Positions 1-50,015 of a stretch of DNA of 64,000 bases are shown here, in pieces. Position 1 is the stretch's first letter, and each line of letters starts with the position of its first letter. The stretch is from an uncultured Desulfobacterales bacterium. GTDB taxonomy: Bacteria > Desulfobacterota > Dissulfuribacteria > Dissulfuribacterales > QOAL01. The notes under the pieces were generated by a model. It had not been told where the DNA came from, ran no database searches, and worked only from the letters and a program-made list of their open reading frames with translations. Location: NCBI GenBank assembly GCA_964573805.1, contig CAZNKP010000024.1:827-64826 (forward strand), read 5' to 3'. A program made the translations under genes and the position numbers.

Positions 1-978
1 CTTATTGATACAAAAGAGAGAAAAATCAATCTAGAATGGCAAATCAAAGACCTTGGTACCGGCACATTGAATCTCACAAATTTTATGGAAAAAGTTTCAC
101 CAGGGTTAGTAGATTCCAGAAACCTCACCGGATGGTGGTATGATCCTGCTTACGATGGGATGGGATTCTTTATTGAGGCAAAAGGGGAAACAATTTTTCT
201 GGCATGGTACAATTATGGTGAAGGCGGTTCACCCATGTGGTTAACATCTACTGGAGAATTCCCTGACAAGGCTACCACTTATTCCGGCACTTTTTCTTCC
301 TGGCGGAACGGCCAAAGCCCTGGCGTAGTATATAAACAACCTCAAGAATTGCCTGGCTCTGGAAACATCACCCTGACCTTTTCCAGCTCCGATAAGGCCT
401 TGGCAGTAATAAATGAAAACACAATCCTGTCACTTGAAAAATTCATGCACAGTAACGAAGAGCCAAAATCTTACATGCCACATCCGTGCAACGACGAGGA
501 ACCAGGAATGGTCAAATGTGGCACAATGACCATTGATGGAGACTATAGGGATTGGACAGAACACTATAGGGTTTATGCTGACATAGACGGACCAGAATGT
601 GACAACGCCCCGGGACTCGATATCAGGGAAGTTTATCTTGCCCAAGATGAGACCTTCATCTACATGCGTTTTGTGCTTAATGGACCTCTGGCCCCCACTT
701 ATGCATATAAATTTGGAAACAGCTTCAGACACATCTTTATAGACCAAAACGAAAACGGCCGCTCATATTTTTATGCAAATGCCTTTGGATTTCCACAGTC
801 TCTTCTGCCGCCAGACTTTCTCCATATCGATGGGAACCAATTCGAATGCAAATTTTACAAATCTGACGTGATGCCCTACTGGAAAGATGACGAGAACCTT
901 GCAACCTGGAATGGACAGGGTTTCATTACAGAGTGCAGGGACTATATCCCTCTTCAAGGGTTGAAGTTTGACTTTTGA
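1..978 (+). CDS. Partial CDS (5' end outside window): uncharacterised protein with a WY-rich domain shared with the 6016-8169 protein
   Basis: Frame 1 is open from nt 1 (LIDTKERKINLEWQIKDLGTG precedes the TTG at 67) to the stop at 976-978. LTGWWYDPAYDGMGFFIEAKGETIFLAWYNYGEGGSPMW aligns with two repeats in the 717-aa protein. The C-terminal half is Cys-containing. Confidence 0.6.
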   Translation, partial: LIDTKERKINLEWQIKDLGTGTLNLTNFMEKVSPGLVDSRNLTGWWYDPAYDGMGFFIEAKGETIFLAWYNYGEGGSPMWLTSTGEFPDKATTYSGTFSSWRNGQSPGVVYKQPQELPGSGNITLTFSSSDKALAVINENTILSLEKFMHSNEEPKSYMPHPCNDEEPGMVKCGTMTIDGDYRDWTEHYRVYADIDGPECDNAPGLDIREVYLAQDETFIYMRFVLNGPLAPTYAYKFGNSFRHIFIDQNENGRSYFYANAFGFPQSLLPPDFLHIDGNQFECKFYKSDVMPYWKDDENLATWNGQGFITECRDYIPLQGLKFDF

Positions 979-16587: not shown

Positions 16588-17589
16588 ATGAAAAAACGCT
16601 GCTTGAGCGGAATGCGTCCGTCTGGGAAGCTTCATCTAGGTCATTTGCATGGAGTGCTTGAGAATTGGAAGCGTCTCCAGGAAGAGTATGAATGCTTTTT
16701 CTTTGTTGCAGACTGGCATGCCCTTACCACCAACTACAAGAAGGCATGGGAAATTCCACAAAACATATCAGAGATGGTTCTCGATTGGTTGGCCGTAGGC
16801 ATCGATCCAGAAAAGGCCACTCTTTTTGTTCAATCGGATGTTAAGGAACATGCTGAATTACACCTTTTATTGTCTATGATCACTCCACTTGGCTGGCTTG
16901 AAAGAAATCCCACATATAAAGAACAGAAACAGCAACTAAAAGACAAGGATATCTCCACTTACGGATTCTTGGGCTATCCAGTCCTTCAAGCAGCAGATAT
17001 TATTATGTATAAGGCCAATAAGGTTCCGGTGGGCATAGACCAGCTTCCACACGTTGAGTTAACAAGAGAGATAACGAGAAGATTCAATTATCTTTACAAA
17101 GAGATATTTCCTATTCCAGATCCGCTTCTTGCCGAAACTCCGAAACTGCCAGGCCTCGATGGCAGAAAGATGAGCAAAAGTTATGGCAATTCGATCTTCA
17201 TTTCTGACACACCAGAAGAGGTCACTCAAAAGATTATGACCATGGTGACGGACGTGGAGAGACCAAGAAAATCTGACCCTGGTGACCCGGAAAAGAGGTG
17301 TATAGCATTCAACCTTCATAAACTTTACTTGCCAAAGGAGCGTTTGGCACAAATTGTAGAAGATTGCAAGGCCGCAAGGCTTGGATGCGTAGCATGCAAA
17401 AAAGAACTTGCAAAGGCGGTGGTGGATTTTCTAATGCCTGTATGGGAAAGGAGGAATAGTTTTTCTCAATCTCCTGAAATAGTCCCAAAGATACTGAAAT
17501 CTGGTGCAGAAAAGGCCAGAAAAGAGGCGCAAAATACAATGGCCCAGGTGAGGGAGGCCCTGTGGAGCCAAAATGCACAGTCAGATTAG
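16588..17589 (+). CDS. trpS: Tryptophan--tRNA ligase
   Basis: SGMRPSGKLHLGHLHG (HIGH region), KMSKS motif, VGIDQLPHVELTREI. A TTG at 16567 is an alternative start. Confidence 0.9.
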   Translation: MKKRCLSGMRPSGKLHLGHLHGVLENWKRLQEEYECFFFVADWHALTTNYKKAWEIPQNISEMVLDWLAVGIDPEKATLFVQSDVKEHAELHLLLSMITPLGWLERNPTYKEQKQQLKDKDISTYGFLGYPVLQAADIIMYKANKVPVGIDQLPHVELTREITRRFNYLYKEIFPIPDPLLAETPKLPGLDGRKMSKSYGNSIFISDTPEEVTQKIMTMVTDVERPRKSDPGDPEKRCIAFNLHKLYLPKERLAQIVEDCKAARLGCVACKKELAKAVVDFLMPVWERRNSFSQSPEIVPKILKSGAEKARKEAQNTMAQVREALWSQNAQSD

Positions 17590-18284
17590 ATACGTTTGAA
17601 GGCCCTCTTGATTTGCTCCTTCACCTTATTATTAAAAATCAGCTTGATATAACAGACATCCCCATCTCTGAGGTTACGACCCAGTACGTCCAATACCTGG
17701 AGTTTCTCCAAGCACTGGACATAGAAGTAGCTGCAGAATATCTGCTCATGGCGGCAACTCTAATTCATATAAAAAGCAGGATGTTGCTACCTCCAAAACA
17801 AGAACAGGCGCCGGAAGACCCAAGGCTCCAGATCACCATTGCTCTTCAAGAGCTCAAAAAGGCCAAAGAGCTTGCAGATAAACTGGAGTCCAGACCTATT
17901 CTAGGAAGGGACGTATTTACAGGCACACCAGAAAACATTGACCCGGAAGGTTCGACAATCCTTGAAAAAGACCTAGTCCCTGTAAGCGTGTTCGAGCTTG
18001 TGGAGGCCTTGAAAAAACTGCTTAAAAATCCGAAAATTCCCAGGACCGTGGAGATAGAAAAGGCAAGAATTGGACTTTTGGAAAGAATCAGGCAGATTGA
18101 AAGGCAGATTGAATCGCAAAAAAAATTGAGTTTTTTTGAACTCTTCTCTGGAGAAATGGAACGTCTATTGGTGATAGTTACCTTCTTGGCCATGCTTGAA
18201 CTGTCAAAAAGGGGGAAAATAAGGCTCTTTCAAAGAGAAAATGACGAAGACATAATAATCGTGAAGCGCACCAGTAACTCATGA
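17562..18284 (+). CDS. scpA: Segregation and condensation protein A
   Basis: N-terminal FEGPLDLLLHLIIKNQLDITDIPISEVTTQY and a C-terminal winged-helix-like region, typical of ScpA. Confidence 0.8.
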   Translation: MEPKCTVRLDTFEGPLDLLLHLIIKNQLDITDIPISEVTTQYVQYLEFLQALDIEVAAEYLLMAATLIHIKSRMLLPPKQEQAPEDPRLQITIALQELKKAKELADKLESRPILGRDVFTGTPENIDPEGSTILEKDLVPVSVFELVEALKKLLKNPKIPRTVEIEKARIGLLERIRQIERQIESQKKLSFFELFSGEMERLLVIVTFLAMLELSKRGKIRLFQRENDEDIIIVKRTSNS

Positions 18285-19066
18285 AAACCTCCATGCAAAT
18301 AGCTGCCTATCAGAAGTGGTTTGGAGAATACGCCCGTTCCTATATATCTGTGGCACCATCAAAAGACAGGATGGCAATGGGCCTAAAACTTATTCACAGC
18401 CAACGAGTAAGAAAACTTGCAAAGAAACTTGCCCTAGAGCTATCCCTTGATAAAAAGCAGGTCTTCCTTGCCGAGCTTTGCGGCCTGTTTCACGATATTG
18501 GAAGACTGCCACAATTTAAAAAATACAAGACCTTTTTTGATGCAAAATCAGAAGACCATGCAGCCCTTAGCATCAATGTATTAAAGAGACATGGTGTCCT
18601 TTCAGATCTTGGTGCAAAAGAGGAAGCTGATATTCTTGATGCCATTTTCGTTCACAACAAGCTCTCTGTTCCCAAAGGATTCCATGGGCAAAAACTTACC
18701 CTTTCAAAAATCCTGCGAGATGCAGACAAAATAGATATTTTACGGGTCTTTGACGACTATTACAGAAAGGGAATTGGAGCAGAGGATATAAATCTTGGCC
18801 TTCCCCCAGGCAAGACCATCTCAAAGGATGCCTTGGATGAATTCAAAGCTGACAGGATAGTCAGGATCGAACATGTACGAAACCAGCTTGATTTTATAGT
18901 AATGCGCCTTAGTTGGCTTTTTGATATTAATTACAAACAGTCCCTTGGCACTGTTGCAAAACGCAACTACATTCACACCATGTTCCAAATGCTTCCTGAA
19001 GGGAAAGGAAAAGACATGGTAAAAGAAAAGATTACCACCCTGCTAGAGGAGAGACTTGGCAGATGA
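18281..19066 (+). CDS. HD-domain phosphohydrolase
   Basis: H...HDIGR...D pattern (LFHDIGRLPQF; LRDADKIDIL). ATGA overlap with scpA. Confidence 0.7.
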   Translation: MKTSMQIAAYQKWFGEYARSYISVAPSKDRMAMGLKLIHSQRVRKLAKKLALELSLDKKQVFLAELCGLFHDIGRLPQFKKYKTFFDAKSEDHAALSINVLKRHGVLSDLGAKEEADILDAIFVHNKLSVPKGFHGQKLTLSKILRDADKIDILRVFDDYYRKGIGAEDINLGLPPGKTISKDALDEFKADRIVRIEHVRNQLDFIVMRLSWLFDINYKQSLGTVAKRNYIHTMFQMLPEGKGKDMVKEKITTLLEERLGR

Positions 19067-19338
19067 ACAAAAAAAAGACCCTTGTATACAATATCCTTTT
19101 TTTAACAGGCTCTGCTGCCATCATCATATTCTTATGGATGGCTCCACCCGAAACCACAGCCAAGCTACCCTATGACGATAATCATCGCACTTTTTATGAC
19201 ATGCCTAAAAAACTGGCAGAAAAACAATGCGCCCAATGCCATTCCAAGAAAGCTGGCATGCCCCTTCCCGAAAAGCATCCGCCCAAATACAGATGTCTGT
19301 TCTGCCATAAAAAGGCCAAACCGAAGACTCAGGACTAG
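19063..19338 (+). CDS. Small membrane-anchored diheme c-type cytochrome
   Basis: N-terminal TM helix (LVYNILFLTGSAAIIIFLWM) and two CXXCH motifs (CAQCH, CLFCH). ATGA overlap with the HD gene. Confidence 0.65.
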   Translation: MNKKKTLVYNILFLTGSAAIIIFLWMAPPETTAKLPYDDNHRTFYDMPKKLAEKQCAQCHSKKAGMPLPEKHPPKYRCLFCHKKAKPKTQD

Positions 19339-19339
19339 C

Positions 19340-20188
19340 ATGGAACTGTGGTTCACTGAAAAACACACAAAGGGCACGGGCATTATTCTCAAGTGCAAAA
19401 GAACCATTTACTCTACCAAAAGCCCGTTTCAGCAAATAGACGTCTTGGAAACAGAAGACTTTGGCAGAATGTTACTCCTTGACGGCCTTGTCATGACTAC
19501 TGAAAGGGATGAGTTCATTTATCACGAAATGCTTGTGCATCCGCCTATGCATTATCATGGAAACGCCAGAAACGTGCTTGTCATAGGAGGCGGTGATGGT
19601 GGAGCTGTAAGGGAGCTTCTTAAATATCCTTCAATTGAACATGTAACCCTTTGTGAAATTGATAAAGAAGTGGTAGAAACTGCCAAAAAATTTTTCCCTT
19701 CTCTTTCCAGTCGGCTTGATGATCAAAGGGTAGAACTGATATTCCAAGACGGAAGCACGCTACTGAAGGAATCAAATCGCTGTTTTGACCTCATTGTAAT
19801 TGACTCAACAGACCCTATAGGAGCAGCCAAGGCCCTATTTACCAAAGAATTTTACAGTACTTGCCAAAGGGCCCTAGCAGATGGTGGACTTTTATGTGCG
19901 CAAAGTGAATCTCCCATCTATCATACGGCCATAATTAAACAGATGAAAACGGACATGGAAAACGCTGGCTTTGGCTTTGTCTGTGCATACACAGCGCCAA
20001 TTCCTACATATCCTGGGGGCTATTGGTCCTGGATGATGGCTGGAGCTGGCCATTTTCAATTGGACAACCTTGTGACCGGCCTTTTACCTGAAAATGAATA
20101 TCACAAACTTAATTACTTTAACTGCGAGATACTAAAGGCGGCATTTAGCCTGCCAAACTTTTTAAAAAAGGCCATATCTTCACCATGA
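19340..20188 (+). CDS. speE: Spermidine synthase (polyamine aminopropyltransferase)
   Basis: MELWFTEKHT start, GRMLLLDGLVMTTERDEFIYHEM, VIGGGDGG, DSTDPIG. Collinear with B. subtilis SpeE as I remember it. The ORF-track start at 19172 overlaps the cytochrome gene and was not used. Confidence 0.88.
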   Translation: MELWFTEKHTKGTGIILKCKRTIYSTKSPFQQIDVLETEDFGRMLLLDGLVMTTERDEFIYHEMLVHPPMHYHGNARNVLVIGGGDGGAVRELLKYPSIEHVTLCEIDKEVVETAKKFFPSLSSRLDDQRVELIFQDGSTLLKESNRCFDLIVIDSTDPIGAAKALFTKEFYSTCQRALADGGLLCAQSESPIYHTAIIKQMKTDMENAGFGFVCAYTAPIPTYPGGYWSWMMAGAGHFQLDNLVTGLLPENEYHKLNYFNCEILKAAFSLPNFLKKAISSP

Positions 20189-21366
20189 CACCAGAAAAAG
20201 ACTATGGGAAACACCTGCTTTTAAAGGCCAGGGACTTTTCTTCCTGGTTGATATCCATCAGGAGAGACATCCACACCCATCCTGAGCCGGCCTTTGAAGA
20301 AGTACAGACATCTAAATATATATGTTCTATATTGGACCAGCTCCATGTGCCTTTCAGAAACAATGTAGCCAAAACAGGAGTAGTTGCAGAGATTGGCAAA
20401 AAGGACAGCCAGCGGGTCGTATGTGTAAGGGCAGATATGGACGCCCTCTCCGTAGATGAAAAGACCGGACTAAAATTTTCATCGAAAAGGCCAGGAATTA
20501 TGCACGCCTGTGGACACGATGGCCATGTTGCCATGCTCCTTGGTTGCGCACGGCTTCTTAAAGAAAAAACGCCACGCAGTGGATTGGTCCGGCTTCTATT
20601 TCAACCTGCAGAGGAAGGGCAAGGAGGGGCCAAGAGAATGGTAGAAGAGGGATGCCTTGACAGATGCATTTGCATATTTGGAGGACACATAGACACCCAT
20701 TTTGAGGTTGGACAAATTGCCCTTCAAGAAGGCATCATGTGTGCCTATGCAGACAGACTCCTTATCGAAGTCAACGGGAAGGGAGGACATGCTGCCCGTC
20801 CACATGAGGCAGCAGACAGCATAGTAGCAGCAAGCAACCTAGTAGTGATGTTACAGGCAGCCTTGAATAAGCGGATTAACCCGCAATATCCAGCGCTGAT
20901 ATCCATTGGCACAGTCCGAGGAGGAAGCGCACCAAATGCCATTGCTGACAAGACAGTCCTCAGAGGCACCATAAGGACTACGGCAGATGAAGTAAGAAGA
21001 CAGGCCTTCGAAATTATAAAAGACTGTGCCAAGGCAGTGGATCTAGCCTTTGGTGTAACTACAACGGTCCTTTTCCCGGAGCATTACCCACCAGTAATAA
21101 ACAGCAAAGAGCCTACCAAAATTGCGACCACTGCTGCAAGAGAGGTGGTTGGTGAGGCTGGCGTGCTTTCTTATCCTATTCCAAGCCTTGGTGGTGAGGA
21201 TTTTTCCTTTTATCTTGAAAAGGTACCAGGATGTTTTGTAAGATTTGGAGCAAAAAAGAAGGGCGTAGAGGCTCCAGCTCATAGCTCATATTTTGATTTT
21301 AACGAAGACGTCCTGCCAATAGGCGCGGCGTTTTTTGCAAACTGTGCGCTAAAGGCCCTTAGCTAG
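20185..21366 (+). CDS. M20D-family amidohydrolase (N-acyl-amino-acid / hippurate hydrolase-like)
   Basis: RRDIHTHPE, MHACGHDGH and FQPAEEG metal-ligand blocks. ATGA overlap with speE. Confidence 0.8.
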   Translation: MTPEKDYGKHLLLKARDFSSWLISIRRDIHTHPEPAFEEVQTSKYICSILDQLHVPFRNNVAKTGVVAEIGKKDSQRVVCVRADMDALSVDEKTGLKFSSKRPGIMHACGHDGHVAMLLGCARLLKEKTPRSGLVRLLFQPAEEGQGGAKRMVEEGCLDRCICIFGGHIDTHFEVGQIALQEGIMCAYADRLLIEVNGKGGHAARPHEAADSIVAASNLVVMLQAALNKRINPQYPALISIGTVRGGSAPNAIADKTVLRGTIRTTADEVRRQAFEIIKDCAKAVDLAFGVTTTVLFPEHYPPVINSKEPTKIATTAAREVVGEAGVLSYPIPSLGGEDFSFYLEKVPGCFVRFGAKKKGVEAPAHSSYFDFNEDVLPIGAAFFANCALKALS

Positions 21367-45449: not shown

Positions 45450-46286
45450 TCAGTGCCTTCCTTGAAAGGACAATGCCAAAACAAATAAAAGACCCGATAA
45501 CAGTCCAGAGATAAATCCCCAAAAATGTGCCAATATATCTATATTGCCCTCACCTGTACCAAGTAAACCCAAAAGAGCAAGGCCAGACAAGAAGACTTTA
45601 AAGGCCTCCCTTACACCATTAATCCTCTGCCTCCATATCTTTATAGAACAGTAGGCCCCTATAGCTGCAAAAATTGATGTGGACAGCCCAATAGACACAT
45701 GATCGTACTGAAAGGTTAAGGCATTAAGATAATTCCCAATGGCACCTGATAGCAAAACCGTAATCCAGCCAATTAAGACCCCAGTTTCTTCAAATAACAC
45801 GCTGAAAAACACAGCAGCCATAAACATATTACTAAAAAAATGGGCAGGATCTGAATGTAGAAAAAGGGCAGTGAAACAACGCCAAGGTTCTCCATTCAGG
45901 ATCTTTTCAGTATCTGCAGAAAAATTTTTTAGAAGATAGTCCCTGACTTCGTATCTAAACGTTATAGACATAAGACATGCAAAAAAAACCAGGGTCAAGA
46001 GGCTTTTTTTCAAATAGATAAAAGGCTTGGGGGGCTGGCCTGGTGAGATTTGCTGAAAATAGTGAATGTTTTCTTTGATAAACAGTTCAATCTCTTTTTC
46101 AGCAATATCAAGAAGGTCTTCTTTTACCCAAAGAACATATCTTCCCTGGTTGGTGCTTTCCCTGTTATCCTTCAACTCATGAGGAATCCCCCTTGCTGTT
46201 AAAACTAGGGAAAAAAGACGTGCTTTCTCAGGGCTATCTAGATAAAGAAAGGGCTCCATAGAAAGGCCCTGGGGTTCCAGGGCCAT
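45450..46286 (-). CDS. Rhomboid-family intramembrane serine protease with an N-terminal cytoplasmic domain
   Basis: WRCFTALFLHSDPAHFFSNM (the H..H..N region) and the GxSxxxF catalytic Ser block GLSTSIFAAIGAY, followed by a later His (ILAHFWGF). Confidence 0.8.
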   Translation of the reverse strand: MALEPQGLSMEPFLYLDSPEKARLFSLVLTARGIPHELKDNRESTNQGRYVLWVKEDLLDIAEKEIELFIKENIHYFQQISPGQPPKPFIYLKKSLLTLVFFACLMSITFRYEVRDYLLKNFSADTEKILNGEPWRCFTALFLHSDPAHFFSNMFMAAVFFSVLFEETGVLIGWITVLLSGAIGNYLNALTFQYDHVSIGLSTSIFAAIGAYCSIKIWRQRINGVREAFKVFLSGLALLGLLGTGEGNIDILAHFWGFISGLLSGLLFVLALSFQGRH

Positions 46287-48130: not shown

Positions 48131-48982
48131 ATGAAAAAAAATGACCTGGAACTCACTGTCCTTTGCGAAAACTCAGTAGCTGGTCCTTTTGGCCTTATTG
48201 GAGAGCATGGATGGTCAGTGTTAATAGAGGTAAGAGGACGAACTATTTTGTTCGACACTGGCCAAGGACTTGGAATTATAAATAACAGCAGGAGACTGGG
48301 CAAAGACCTGTCTAAGGTGGACCTGCTGGTCCTAAGTCATGGACACTACGATCACGCATCTGGAATCCCACAGGTTCTTTCCTTAAAGGCATTTCTACCC
48401 GTTATCTGTCATCCTGATGTCTTTGTTCCTCGTTACTGGCGCAAAGACAATGTTAGGAGATTTATTGGAATGTTTCACAACAGGGACTATCTGGAGTCGC
48501 TGGGATGTAAGTTTTGTTTTTACACCTCTTTTTCAGAAATATTACCAGGTATTTATATTACAGGAGAAGTGCCGCGAACCACTGACTTTGAACTGCCAGA
48601 TCCGCATATGGAGATAGAAATTGAAGAGGCTGGAGAAAAAATTACTAAACAAGATCCATTGAAAGATGACCTTTCAATGGTTGTAGACACCCCCTCAGGC
48701 CTAATTGTAATACTTGGCTGTGCACATGCAGGACTTATAAATATACTGAGACATATCCGTTCACACCTGCCGAACAAGAAAATTCATACGGTGATAGGTG
48801 GCACACACCTGGGCTTTGCAACAGATGAACAGTTTGAGCGTACAGTGGAGGCAATTAGGGAATTTGACATAAAAAGAATTGGGGCATCACATTGCACAGG
48901 CCTAACAAACTCGGCCCGCTTATTTTGTCGACTAAAAGAACGATTTTTTCACGCCTCTGTTGGTGTGACCTTAAAAATTTAA
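48131..48982 (+). CDS. MBL-fold metallo-hydrolase (COG1237-like)
   Basis: HxHxDH motif (LSHGHYDH) and later His/Asp ligands (GCAHAG, GGTHLG). AAGGAG RBS. Confidence 0.75.
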   Translation: MKKNDLELTVLCENSVAGPFGLIGEHGWSVLIEVRGRTILFDTGQGLGIINNSRRLGKDLSKVDLLVLSHGHYDHASGIPQVLSLKAFLPVICHPDVFVPRYWRKDNVRRFIGMFHNRDYLESLGCKFCFYTSFSEILPGIYITGEVPRTTDFELPDPHMEIEIEEAGEKITKQDPLKDDLSMVVDTPSGLIVILGCAHAGLINILRHIRSHLPNKKIHTVIGGTHLGFATDEQFERTVEAIREFDIKRIGASHCTGLTNSARLFCRLKERFFHASVGVTLKI

Positions 48983-48983
48983 A

Positions 48984-49027
48984 AATGATGGCAGGCAGGG
49001 TTAATTTATCCACCGCCTGCCATCATT
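48984..49027 (-). terminator. Long hairpin terminator after the collagen-like gene
   Basis: 13-bp perfect arms AATGATGGCAGGC / GCCTGCCATCATT with an 18-nt loop. On the minus strand it is followed by TTTTTAAATTTTT. Confidence 0.65.
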
Positions 49028-49040
49028 AGAGATGATTTAG

Positions 49041-49514
49041 CTATTCCTTCTTTTTCTTTGATTTAGAGGCCTTGGTTCCAGACGTTCCCTTGGGTCCTCT
49101 TGGTCCTCTCGGGCCTCTTGGCCCCTCTGGCCCTGGTGGACCTGGTTCTCCTGGTGGACCTTGCGGCCCTTCCGGACCCGGAGGTCCCTGCGGACCCGGT
49201 TCACCCTTGTCTCCCTTTGGACCCGGTGGCCCCTCTGGCCCTGGTGGTCCTTGCGGACCCTCTGGCCCTGGCGGACCTGGTTCTCCTGGTGGACCTTGCG
49301 GCCCTTCCGGACCCGGAGGTCCCTGCGGACCCGGAGGTCCTGGTTTGCCTGGAGGCCCTGGAGGTCCAGGATCTCCCTTTGGACCACGAAGTCTACCACT
49401 TTCCAATGCCTGTTTAATCTCTTCGATGTCCTTTTGCAGGGCAGTCAGTCTTCGGTATGCAAGGATACCAAAAATACTGAGCCCGATCGCCAAGAATGCA
49501 AGAACAATAGCCAT
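49041..49514 (-). CDS. Membrane-anchored collagen-like (Gly-X-Y)35 protein
   Basis: AAGGAGGG RBS before the ATG at 49514. N-terminal hydrophobic helix, a short heptad-like segment, 35 uninterrupted GXY triplets and a Lys-rich tail. Confidence 0.8.
49125..49334. repeat. Internal direct repeat in the collagen-like gene (two 75-nt copies, 135-nt period)
   Basis: 49125-49199 and 49260-49334 differ at one position (GGTGGA vs GGCGGA). The offset equals 15 GXY triplets. Confidence 0.9.
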
Positions 49515-49609
49515 TTTCCCTCCTTAAACTGAATAGTTACATGCGAGGTAGAAGCTACCTATCTTTATGACATTTTTCACTATTTCCTCTCCCTGCTTAA
49601 CAAAAATGG

Positions 49610-49638
49610 AGGTTAGACCACCATTTTAATGCAGTCAA
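49610..49638 (-). promoter_or_regulatory. Candidate sigma70 promoter for the collagen-like gene
   Basis: Minus strand: TTGACT (49638-49633), 17-nt spacer, TAACCT (49615-49610). Confidence 0.3.
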
Positions 49639-49853
49639 TATGAAATTTTCGATTTGTTATCAAAAAACATTTCGATCCGCCTCTAACAATTATGAATTTT
49701 GCTTCCAAAAAATAAAATGCTTGAGGAAAATGGCTGTAAGCAACTCATTAATATTAAAGATTATTCTCGGAATACGGTTTGGTTACAAAAACAAAAAACA
49801 GCCCTAAAACGCAATTGTAAACACCCTGCACAACAAAAATCTAAAAAAACCTG

Positions 49854-50015
49854 CTATCTTCGCTTTGGCGTATCTTTCCCGAAAAGCGCCGCCCAGTAGC
49901 CTCTTACAAGATCAATTGGTCCATTTTGTATTAATGCAGAAACAAGACATGCTAGAGCCCAAAGGGCTACTAGAGCACCAATGCCAAAAAACAAACCAGC
50001 AAATATGGTTGTCAT
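49854..50015 (-). CDS. Candidate small membrane protein (53 aa), absent from the ORF track
   Basis: MTTIFAGLFFGIGALVALWALACLVSALIQNGPIDLVRGYWAALFGKDTPKRR*. One TM helix plus a basic tail. The ATG lies 21 nt downstream of the ypfJ-like stop, with GGGGA upstream. Confidence 0.4.
   Translation of the reverse strand: MTTIFAGLFFGIGALVALWALACLVSALIQNGPIDLVRGYWAALFGKDTPKRR

Follow-up and report, generated by a model that had tools for sequence, protein, structure and literature searches.

A small conserved bacterial membrane protein with a collagen rod, a lysine-rich tip and a predicted cytoplasmic orientation

The prokaryotic collagens listed in a review of these proteins are wall- or surface-bound only (PMC8968730). 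Scl1/Scl2, Lcl, BclA and Bucl8 each carry a hydroxyproline-free Gly-X-Y domain (PF01391) whose repeat number varies among strains. They also have signals for export, globular domains for trimerisation or ligand binding, and an anchor to the wall, exosporium or outer membrane (PMC8968730). The protein described here shares the collagen domain and the variable repeat number but has none of those other features, and the proline content of its family (33–42%) is far above theirs.

Other bacterial collagen-like proteins are anchored by a transmembrane (TM) segment. Those of the P0013, P0022, P0032 and P0049 type run, like ours, from an N-terminal helix through a helical spacer into collagen, within 150–260 residues. 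They differ in two ways. First, their N-terminal tail is rich in basic residues (two to six Lys/Arg, compared with none here), which predicts an N-in topology with the collagen outside. Second, they end in a Cys-containing globular module, and their N-termini have no similarity to that of our protein.

The closest architectural parallels are found in animals. Class A scavenger receptors are homotrimers that join a TM segment, a coiled coil and collagen, with a Lys-rich collagen region implicated in ligand binding, and one of them, SCARA3, ends at its collagen domain with no globular head (PMC3567963). The same order, closed by a cationic collagen end, recurs in SR-AI/II, MARCO and SCARA3 and in collagens XIII, XVII, XXIII and XXV; we treat this as architectural resemblance, not homology, since the sequence relation is confined to Gly-X-Y. 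The animal proteins are glycoproteins of type II: 30–55 N-terminal residues form a cytoplasmic domain, the collagen is extracellular, the helical spacers are far longer and hydroxyproline is used. In our protein, by contrast, only Met-Ala/Ser precedes the helix and the charge bias is reversed. Type XIII collagen reportedly needs a short juxtamembrane sequence to trimerise, according to work by Snellman from 2000.

A third comparison is with bacterial proteins of N-out/C-in orientation. ZipA, EzrA, RNase Y and YhcB place a helix within their first few residues, follow it with basic residues, and continue into a cytoplasmic coiled coil or, in ZipA, an extended Pro-rich tether, ending in enzymatic or protein-binding domains. 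We know of no collagen in these four proteins and of no homology between them and ours.

The gene lies within a window of 64,000 nucleotides of DNA from an uncultured bacterium. It encodes 157 amino acids on the minus strand (49041..49514, from the ATG through the stop codon), ordered as Met, a 19-residue hydrophobic helix, Arg-Arg, a heptad coil, 35 Gly-X-Y triplets and the tail ASKSKKKKE. An in-frame TAA, read directly 12 nt upstream of the ATG, makes an N-terminal extension impossible. The gene stands out in base composition, with a GC fraction of 0.60–0.65 against about 0.42 in its surroundings. An earlier note on this DNA, made from the letters alone, had proposed the succession of helix, heptad coil, unbroken collagen and Lys tail. 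That layout proved to be conserved in seven distinct orthologues, and the protein is a minimal, conserved TM-coil-collagen-polylysine variant among bacterial collagen-like proteins.

A helix, a coil, a collagen rod and a lysine-rich tail

The collagen domain (aa 44–148; 49071..49385, minus strand) comprises 35 uninterrupted Gly-X-Y triplets and is 41% proline. Position X is Pro in 27 of the 35 triplets and position Y in 16, giving 11 GPP triplets. Its match to the Pfam family Collagen (PF01391), at E=4.4e-19, scores 68.4 bits where the cut-off is 27.2, and no other Pfam family is found in the protein. With its long unbroken Gly-X-Y run and high imino-acid content, the protein is collagen-like by structural definition as well. 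At a rise of 0.286 nm per residue, 35 triplets would make a triple helix of about 30 nm.

Part of this rod is a recent internal duplication (49125..49334, minus strand), in which aa 61–85 (49260–49334) equal aa 106–130 (49125–49199) with a single synonymous difference in 25 codons. Duplication of this kind accounts for variation in repeat number, and probably also for the breaks in assemblies, where short-read contigs end within the collagen gene. The C-terminal collagen block behaves differently: aa 128–144 (49083..49133, minus strand) do not differ at the protein level between any of the orthologues, although as many as 14 of 15 synonymous sites have changed, and the motif GPE-(GPR)3-GPK-GT is kept across them. 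The Lys/Ser-rich tail that follows (ASKSKKKKE, aa 149–157; 49044..49070, minus strand), itself preceded by K148, varies in sequence and in its last residue (E, K or T), and every orthologue has five or six lysines within its last 15 residues. Gene context indicates no ligand for this tail.

At the other end, the TM helix (aa 2–20; 49455..49511, minus strand) is invariant at 16 of 19 positions in the seven orthologues, and its small residues A6, A9, S13 and G16 follow heptad spacing. Directly after it stand Arg21-Arg22 (49449..49454, minus strand), present in seven of seven orthologues within a YRRL motif kept in all; by the positive-inside rule, we propose this pair as the determinant that would hold its side of the helix in the cytoplasm. 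A short heptad coiled coil comes next (aa 23–39; 49398..49448, minus strand), with L23, L26, I30, I33 and L37 in the a and d positions, and passes straight into a G40-x-L42-R43 junction. Across orthologues the a and d positions remain hydrophobic while b, c and f vary, and dN/dS in the coil is 0.12–0.5. The AF2 model, a monomer that bears on this helix and not on a trimer, shows a single continuous helix over residues 2–38, with pLDDT of 84–87 for the first 20. Taken together, these features make it very probable that the protein is membrane-anchored, and we also expect, with somewhat less assurance, that its chains trimerise and form a triple helix.

The orthologues show how far this architecture can stretch. 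DNA-level scanning and neighbour look-ups yielded at least six further distinct orthologues, hence at least seven with the window gene, all sharing a syntenic position, lptD on one side and an MBL hydrolase gene on the other, in flanking DNA that is 65–81% identical. The nearest named kin of the relatives that bear them are Thermodesulfobacteria, and one orthologue (L097) comes from a hydrothermal sulfide-chimney metagenome of the East Pacific Rise, traced to sample IMG 3300005095. Across seven orthologues, 262 Gly-X-Y triplets contain no interruption; proline stays at 33–42%, GPP triplets are many, and (GPR)3 is invariant. Rod length ranges from 14 to 58 triplets (about 12–50 nm), with 50 triplets in two independent assemblies and 58 in one other (43–50 nm); counts from short-read metagenome-assembled genomes (MAGs) may be collapsed, as in L088, with an N-gap in its repeat, and L087, with only 14 triplets. 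L086 offered just a 24-codon hydrophobic ORF and was not accepted as an orthologue.

Orientation of the rod

Every orthologue has no Lys or Arg before the helix and three to five in the 15 residues after it, as the earlier note had observed for the window protein in pointing to an uncharged N-terminus with basic residues behind the helix. Acidic residues of the coil partly offset this charge (3–5 positive against 2–4 negative). Among 31 other collagen-like proteins that we compared, each with a hydrophobic segment at its N-terminus, 24 show the reverse charge bias and just three a marginally similar one, so that the present protein is an outlier among anchored collagens and carries the bias of an N-out/C-in bitopic protein. 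The positive-inside rule is statistical. Established topology work holds that a hydrophobic segment is not exported when basic residues come right behind it. From the distribution of charges we predict an N-out/C-in orientation, which would place the rod in the cytoplasm and which we think distinctly the likelier topology. The length of the rods points the same way: given the usual width of a periplasm, the longest (43–50 nm) would hardly seem to fit upright in one.

We propose that the protein is a small bitopic inner-membrane protein, most likely a parallel homotrimer. Its extreme N-terminal helix (aa 2–20) would insert into the cytoplasmic membrane, where the invariant Arg-Arg, with almost nothing ahead of the helix, would fix the N-out/C-in orientation. 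About 2.5 heptads of coil and the small-residue face of the TM helix would put three chains in register, and this register would nucleate, from N to C, a hydroxyproline-free and very Pro-rich triple helix of 14–58 triplets (~12–50 nm). The trimer would end in a tip made of the GPE-(GPR)3-GPK-GT block and the flexible Lys/Ser tail, bringing together some 15–18 lysines and nine arginines. Such a protein would act as a rigid membrane-anchored spacer whose polycationic tip holds a polyanion, with nucleoid DNA, RNA, polyphosphate and an anionic inner-leaflet surface as candidates. We put the probability of this whole reading, a homotrimeric cytoplasmic collagen rod anchored in the inner membrane with a polyanion-binding tip, at roughly 0.5; polyanion binding by the tip is, taken separately, an even bet. 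The prior for a cytoplasmic collagen is low, because none has been described and the prokaryotic ones reviewed are only wall- or surface-bound (PMC8968730).

In the main rival, for which the earlier note had already left room, the helix is an uncleaved signal anchor of N-in/C-out orientation. The collagen trimer would then cross the periplasm as a stalk, its Lys tip bound or cross-linked to peptidoglycan or to the outer membrane's inner leaflet. In function the protein would resemble Lpp, TolA or the TonB Pro-rich rod, as a spacer or tether within the envelope. Described prokaryotic collagens are all extracytoplasmic (PMC8968730), and most of the other TM-anchored collagen-like proteins in our comparison have an N-in charge bias with collagen outside. 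The host is a diderm, as the presence of LptD indicates, the collagen gene always adjoins lptD, an envelope gene, and rods of 26–35 triplets (22–30 nm) match periplasmic dimensions. Lpp, moreover, is linked to peptidoglycan through a C-terminal Lys. Lpp, TolA and the TonB rod, relevant to this periplasmic reading only, are elongated structures, trimeric or extended, that bridge or fix distances in the envelope; their folds and anchors differ from those of our protein, Lpp being an outer-membrane lipoprotein and TonB and TolA N-in anchors with basic N-termini.

Several observations speak against a periplasmic stalk. No positive charge lies ahead of the helix and the Arg pair follows it immediately, the end residue of the tail is not conserved, and a 12–50 nm range of rod lengths in close relatives is hard to square with a fixed envelope gap. 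Nor does the neighbouring lptD point to a shared function: the outgroup L093 has lptD and the MBL gene side by side, with no collagen gene at the same junction. We consider a periplasmic stalk unlikely on balance.

Far less probable is an ordinary exported surface collagen, set free in the periplasm or at the surface once a signal peptide is cleaved, and acting there, in the manner of Scl, Lcl or BclA, as an adhesin or fibre. This is the default among bacterial collagen-like proteins (PMC8968730), and the protein does match the NCBIfam models for Scl2, Scl1 and Lcl, if weakly and through its repeats only. The scores, 71.3 bits against a cut-off of 325 and 64.3 against 400 for the Scl1/Scl2 models and 52.2 against 500 for Lcl, fall far short. 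Within the 157 residues there is no Scl1/Scl2 signal peptide, N-terminal variable globular domain or C-terminal LPXTG, no C-terminal GAG-binding domain as in Lcl, and neither the C1q/TNF-like C-terminal domain nor the exosporium-targeting N-terminus of BclA; the sequence ends instead in its nine-residue tail. The N-terminus itself is a poor signal peptide, with an uncharged n-region before a 19-residue hydrophobic core. It has no Cys and therefore no lipobox, and a Tyr at −1 relative to the Arg pair, hence no A-x-A-type cleavage site with small residues at −3 and −1. Near-invariance of the whole helix would also be atypical for a signal peptide that is cut off and discarded. The contrast with Scl1/2, Lcl and BclA that the earlier note had drawn thus stands.

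Conservation, origin and expression of the gene

Searches at the protein level gave nothing beyond matches to the collagen repeat. A search with the whole protein returned 3955 matches, all through Gly-X-Y and the best at 40% identity; none of the 120 listed shares its N-terminus or architecture. A word search with the N-terminus found no match, and ten weak HMMER matches to aa 1–56 among 1.84 billion representatives were set aside as non-homologous, since each falls on the 'helix-LRGPKGD' junction in an unrelated protein, either a multi-repeat or a phage one. Exact look-ups in a collection of 15 billion sequences found neither the protein, nor a version from an alternative start, nor the antisense ORFs, nor five orthologue proteins. 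A genome scan with the neighbouring Zn-peptidase gave, among the matches listed, distant relatives only, none of them above 62% and none with synteny or a collagen ORF. The family was probably overlooked because gene callers skip the gene or annotate the wrong strand. NCBI MAG annotations call the sense ORF; JGI called the antisense ORF in L097.

Could the gene be the captured remnant of a phage tail-fibre or mobile-element collagen gene, without a cellular role? Many collagen matches are phage tail proteins, the helix-to-collagen junction weakly resembles phage minor tail proteins, and among the matches listed the gene occurs in one clade only and is absent at the outgroup junction. Yet the context consists of chromosomal housekeeping genes, with no phage or plasmid genes around the collagen gene; the N-terminus has no significant match in viral contigs, phages or plasmids, which leaves no similarity outside the repeats; and position and strong purifying selection persist across species-level divergence. 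A remnant of this kind is most improbable.

A non-functional ORF, whether a by-product of GC-rich tandem repeats or the shadow of a real antisense gene, is effectively refuted: repeats of the collagen type do open in several frames on both strands, JGI did annotate the antisense ORF and the protein is missing from the 15-billion-sequence collection, but codons 1–23, outside the repeats, show pN of 0–0.06 against pS of 0.12–0.72 (dN/dS at most about 0.1 over the helix, synonymous sites near saturation), the sense frame is intact in every length variant and chosen in NCBI MAG annotations, and start codon, ribosome-binding site (RBS) and promoter-like block are conserved on the sense strand. The collagen gene is genuine: purifying selection on it is strong, its architecture is conserved and its rod length varies. 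Homologues that keep the Gly-X-Y frame, the TM helix and the Lys tail were the check that the earlier note had named, and their lack was to count against it; all three are kept, and at least six further orthologues share the frame.

The expression signals are conserved on the same strand. A promoter-like block, ATATTGACTG-N-ATGGTGGTCTAAC (49610..49642, minus strand), combines a −35 element TTGACT (49633–49638, minus strand) with a −10-like TAACCT (49610–49615, minus strand) across a 17-nt spacer; its match to consensus suggests promoter function. TTGACT and ATGGTGGTCTAA are invariant in six of six aligned loci, 122–134 nt 5' of the ATG. The pair returned by a simple promoter scan uses different hexamers, is not conserved across loci, and was rejected. 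Downstream, in the presumed 5' UTR, a purine-rich box, GGAGAGGAAATAGTGAA (49576..49594, minus strand), is conserved at the nucleotide level in six of six loci. A GTG at 49580 could open an 18-codon upstream ORF whose stop is the TAA within the main RBS; as a leader peptide it is doubtful, its length varying from 7 to 21 codons across loci and its peptide not being conserved, so that only the nucleotide box is kept. The Shine-Dalgarno sequence AAGGAGGG (49518..49525, minus strand) lies 3 nt before the ATG, and TAAGGAGGGAA(A/G)ATG is invariant at every aligned locus, in agreement with the strong RBS noted earlier.

An intrinsic terminator (48971..49027, minus strand) closes the unit. Folding bears out the stem-loop that had been suggested: the hairpin at 48984–49027 has a stem of 15+2 bp and a folding energy of −28.7 kcal/mol (z=−5.8 relative to shuffled sequences), and the U-tract UUUUUAAAUUUUU comes next. 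It escaped a simple terminator scan, in all likelihood through having a loop of more than 8 nt. The terminator is common to the collagen gene and the convergent gene for an MBL-fold hydrolase (48131–48982), whose stop lies at 48982. The loci L083, L084 and L085, when folded, each gave a GC-rich hairpin with a U-run, all different in sequence, so that the four terminators folded in total are independent hairpins. Rfam finds no family within the window, and its sub-threshold matches (miRNA precursors, V_AS9) at 48941–49036 overlap the terminator hairpin.

The collagen gene is a monocistronic unit, as the earlier reading of an independent expression unit had it: the loci share its promoter-like block, RBS and start codon, and the terminators checked have different sequences. 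Its neighbours are also as first described, with the convergent MBL hydrolase on one side and, on the other, a non-coding stretch (49515–49853) before a 53-aa ORF (49854–50015). No partner gene is evident here either. We considered whether the gene works together with the 53-aa ORF or with the Zn-peptidase and dropped the idea, since both are absent from some loci that retain the collagen gene (L084 and L094 lack the small ORF, L087 lacks both).

Implications for bacterial collagens

The family exposes a blind spot. At least seven orthologues lie in public DNA while the gene is missing from 15 billion proteins, with one antisense call and contigs that break in the repeat, and small collagen-like genes may be systematically under-called. 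It may also be of practical interest. If the rod folds at the growth temperatures of vent Thermodesulfobacteria, it would provide a model from nature for a collagen that is very thermostable and free of hydroxyproline, and a proposed trimerisation module of just 43 residues with a tunable rod length is of interest for recombinant collagen materials.

More tentatively, and as a possibility we think less likely than not, this could be the first collagen to work inside a cell. In a thermophilic vent bacterium, a membrane-tethered triple helix would reach into the cytoplasm, and about 40% Pro, an N-terminal clamp of TM helix and coiled coil, and the C-terminal (GPR)3 block would stabilise it in place of hydroxyproline. 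Its trivalent polylysine tip would hold a polyanion (nucleoid, RNA, polyphosphate or membrane surface) tens of nanometres away. The bacterial collagens known so far are all exported, as proteins of the surface or the spore, and a cytoplasmic rod, if true, would widen the uses to which collagen is put.

A collagen gene and its orthologues

The minus-strand gene at 49041..49514 is as the earlier note had described it: its ATG start, 157-aa length, collagen run and tail were all found. An in-frame TAA lies 12 nt 5' of the ATG, so the protein has no earlier possible start. The protein comprises a 43-residue N-terminal segment, 35 unbroken Gly-X-Y triplets (aa 44–148) and a terminal ASKSKKKKE. Proline fills position X in 27 of 35 triplets and position Y in 16 of 35, GPP occurs 11 times, and the collagen domain is 41% proline. 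A match to the Pfam Collagen model (PF01391, E=4.4e-19) places the predicted protein in this repeat family. The gene forms a GC island (0.60–0.65 against ~0.42 in its surroundings), as expected from GGN and CCN codons. GGC and CCC are strongly avoided, at 5% of Gly codons and 2% of Pro codons versus 28% and 20% in 12 long window ORFs, which may help the gene to avoid extended stretches of G or C, slippage or mRNA structure. The gene also contains a near-perfect 25-codon duplication (49125–49334), in which aa 61–85 equal aa 106–130.

Scanning JGI metagenomes with the back-translated N-terminal 48 residues recovered at least three syntenic orthologues (loci L083, L084 and L085), and walking from PilB homologues of relatives added four further loci (L087/L088, L089/L090, L094 and L097). 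L094 differs from L084 by one nucleotide. Locus order runs from lptD through, at some loci only, a Zn-peptidase gene and a 53-aa ORF to the collagen gene, a convergent MBL-hydrolase gene and a gltD-like gene; the flanks keep this order at 65–81% nucleotide identity.

Orthologues carry between 14 and 58 triplets, which would give rods of 12–50 nm at a rise of 0.286 nm for each residue. The window protein (35 triplets) would form a 30.0-nm rod, L083 (145 aa, 31 triplets) one of 26.6 nm, L084/L094 (206 aa, 50 triplets) 42.9 nm, L085 (201 aa, 48 triplets) 41.2 nm, L089 (135 aa, 26 triplets) 22.3 nm, L087 (96 aa, 14 triplets) 12.0 nm and L097 (229 aa, 58 triplets) 49.8 nm. The L087 value is possibly a collapsed one, its sister scaffold L088 having an N-gap in the repeat. 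The 50-triplet form is present in two independent assemblies. An in-frame block of 22 triplets makes up the length difference between L085 and L089 (201 versus 135 aa), whose genomes are closely related. Either rod length evolves rapidly through unit duplication or repeats have collapsed in assemblies.

Selection and expression signals

Codon-level comparison shows a real gene in the sense frame. Across codons 1–23, pairwise synonymous difference is 0.12–0.72 and non-synonymous difference 0–0.06; constraint is weaker over coil codons 24–43 (dN/dS 0.12–0.5). A 17-residue C-terminal block, GPE-(GPR)3-GPK-GT (window aa 128–144), is identical in all orthologues, yet up to 14 of ~15 synonymous sites differ. 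The earlier note would have been undermined by a lack of homologues preserving this frame; instead, all length variants are in frame, and 262 triplets in total contain no Gly interruption. The layout it proposed (membrane helix, heptad coil, unbroken collagen run, Lys tail) is conserved throughout. Of the 19 helix positions (aa 2–20), 16 are invariant and three vary (A/S2, L/V8 and L/M18); Y20-R21-R22-L23 never varies. Coil a/d positions are always hydrophobic (L23, L26, I/V/L/F30, I/L/M33, L37) while b, c and f vary. G40, L42 and R43 are invariant at the junction, as are the opening triplets GPK-GDP-GP. Every tail carries 5–6 Lys among its last 15 residues, though its sequence and final residue drift.

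Upstream and downstream signals agree with the ribosome-binding site and terminator read earlier. AAGGAGGG lies 3 nt 5' of the ATG, and ATATTGACTG...ATGGTGGTCTAA and TAAGGAGGGAA(A/G)ATG are invariant in the aligned loci. A 15+2-bp hairpin (−28.7 kcal/mol, z=−5.8 versus shuffles) with a U-tract occupies 48971–49027, directly past the MBL-hydrolase stop (48982; gene 48131–48982), and probably terminates both convergent genes. Terminators folded at four loci are all hairpins of differing sequence. The window hairpin also gave sub-threshold Rfam matches to miRNA precursor families. A spurious or antisense gene is excluded because selection, frame retention, invariant upstream signals and independent terminators all fit the sense frame.

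The 5' UTR contains a purine-rich box, GGAGAGGA(A/G)A.AGTGAA (49576–49594, minus strand), conserved at the nucleotide level and placed identically in L083, L084, L085, L087 and L089. Its GTG (49580) starts an upstream ORF of 7–21 codons, and in four of six loci this ORF ends in a TAA that overlaps the main RBS; the encoded peptide shows no conservation across the compared loci. The box may be a leader ORF, a second RBS or a regulator site.

Predicted membrane topology and a proposed trimer

The charge asymmetry first seen in the window holds in every orthologue, with no K/R before the helix and 3–5 in the next 15 residues. It is rare elsewhere: of 31 further collagen-like proteins that carry a hydrophobic segment at the N-terminus, 24 have the opposite bias and only 3 share this one, marginally. 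By the positive-inside rule, this pattern predicts an N-out/C-in protein with a cytoplasmic rod, to which we assign a probability of about 0.65–0.7. ZipA, EzrA, RNase Y and YhcB have the same layout. A periplasmic stalk is the less likely but leading alternative; the 43–50 nm variants would fit poorly upright in the periplasm, and the charges flanking the helix run against it. The protein has no Cys and hence no lipobox, and no small −3/−1 cleavage motif precedes RR. A Tat-type signal is rejected because RR stands behind the hydrophobic core, not before it. At 2.8 kb from the collagen gene, another gene (45450–46286, minus strand) encodes a rhomboid-family intramembrane protease; the usual substrates of rhomboids are N-out single-pass helices with abundant Gly and Ser.

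The predicted anatomy suggests a parallel homotrimer. An AF2 monomer model gives a single helix over residues 2–38 with the remainder extended, and small residues A6, A9, S13 and G16 share one heptad face of the membrane helix. This face and ~2.5 coiled-coil heptads could put three chains in register, from which a triple helix would nucleate N to C. A similar N-terminal arrangement is described for class A scavenger receptors and for the collagenous transmembrane proteins of animals (PMC3567963; reportedly also Snellman 2000, cited in PMC8968730). The rod consists almost wholly of GPP, GPR, GPQ and GPE and ends in the invariant (GPR)3 block. These four are among the most stabilising triplets without hydroxyproline in host-guest peptide work. 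The trimer tip would carry ~15–18 Lys and 9 Arg, and SR-A offers a precedent for polyanion binding by a charged collagen end (PMC3567963). The boldest reading, a cytoplasmic, thermostable collagen tether, is less likely than not.

Host, distribution and an overlooked family

LptD is encoded in the window, so the host is a diderm. The window PilB is 83% identical to a protein of an NCBI 'Thermodesulfobacteria bacterium' MAG and 75% to a Thermodesulfatator sp. protein, and L097 comes from an East Pacific Rise hydrothermal sulfide-chimney metagenome (IMG 3300005095); the host is therefore likely thermophilic. In this chimney metagenome, MAGs of Thermodesulfobacteria made up an abundant part of the active chimney (PMC7329443). 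The collagen gene appears confined to one clade, because lptD directly abuts the MBL gene in the more distant L093 (PilB 76% identical) and a CRISPR-like repeat array (~1–900) follows lptD at the expected site in L091/L092 (L091 PilB 77% identical). Peptides repeat regularly in the six-frame translation of this array. L091 also encodes a ribonucleotide reductase large subunit with intein and LAGLIDADG domains (17236–20595; precomputed Pfam matches).

The neighbouring 53-aa hydrophobic ORF (49854–50015, minus strand) has counterparts in L083 (7642–7800), L097 (1041–1184), L089 (1058–1192) and L085 (4–93). Its 49–65% identity across loci marks it as a real, conserved small membrane protein by prediction, with no match in Pfam or NCBIfam. 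It always accompanies the Zn-peptidase gene (PF04228; 50037–50921, minus strand); L084/L094 and L087 lack the ORF and retain the collagen gene. Among the genome matches listed, the closest Zn-peptidase is from a Campylobacterota MAG (isolate L_MetaBat.230; L002), at 62% identity and without synteny. The gene is absent from L087 and the outgroup L093, a patchy distribution that may stem from horizontal transfer.

The earlier contrast with Scl1/2, BclA and Lcl is upheld. NCBIfam Scl1/Scl2 and Lcl models score 52–71 bits against cut-offs of 325–500, and the protein has no signal, globular or sorting domains, so membership in these families, BclA included, is rejected. According to a 2022 review, prokaryotic collagens are bound to the wall or surface, Bucl8 being an outer-membrane case; no inner-membrane or cytoplasmic example is mentioned there (PMC8968730). 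In architecture the protein comes nearest to animal class A scavenger receptors, above all SCARA3, which lacks a head domain; the likeness is convergent, and the orientation predicted here is opposite.

Whole-protein searching returned thousands of matches, every one via the repeat, and none of the 120 listed shares the N-terminus, which alone found no match. An exhaustive HMMER scan of aa 1–56 against 1.84 billion representatives gave ten weak matches, all rejected as homologues since they align at the helix-to-collagen junction of unrelated proteins. The exact 157-aa protein is absent from a 15-billion-sequence collection that holds both neighbours, as are the five orthologue proteins looked up. 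Independent Logan short-read contigs from the same organism (SRR8542060) match the flanking DNA at 100% identity and end at 49152 and 49498, both within the gene. At L097, JGI annotation calls an antisense ORF (21–572, plus strand, 183 aa) over the collagen gene (73–759, minus strand). Mis-calling and repeat-induced assembly breaks may have hidden the family from protein searches, and small collagen-like genes are perhaps systematically mis-called. With its orthologues, the gene defines a small family of minimal, membrane-anchored collagens in vent Thermodesulfobacteria that had not been catalogued before.
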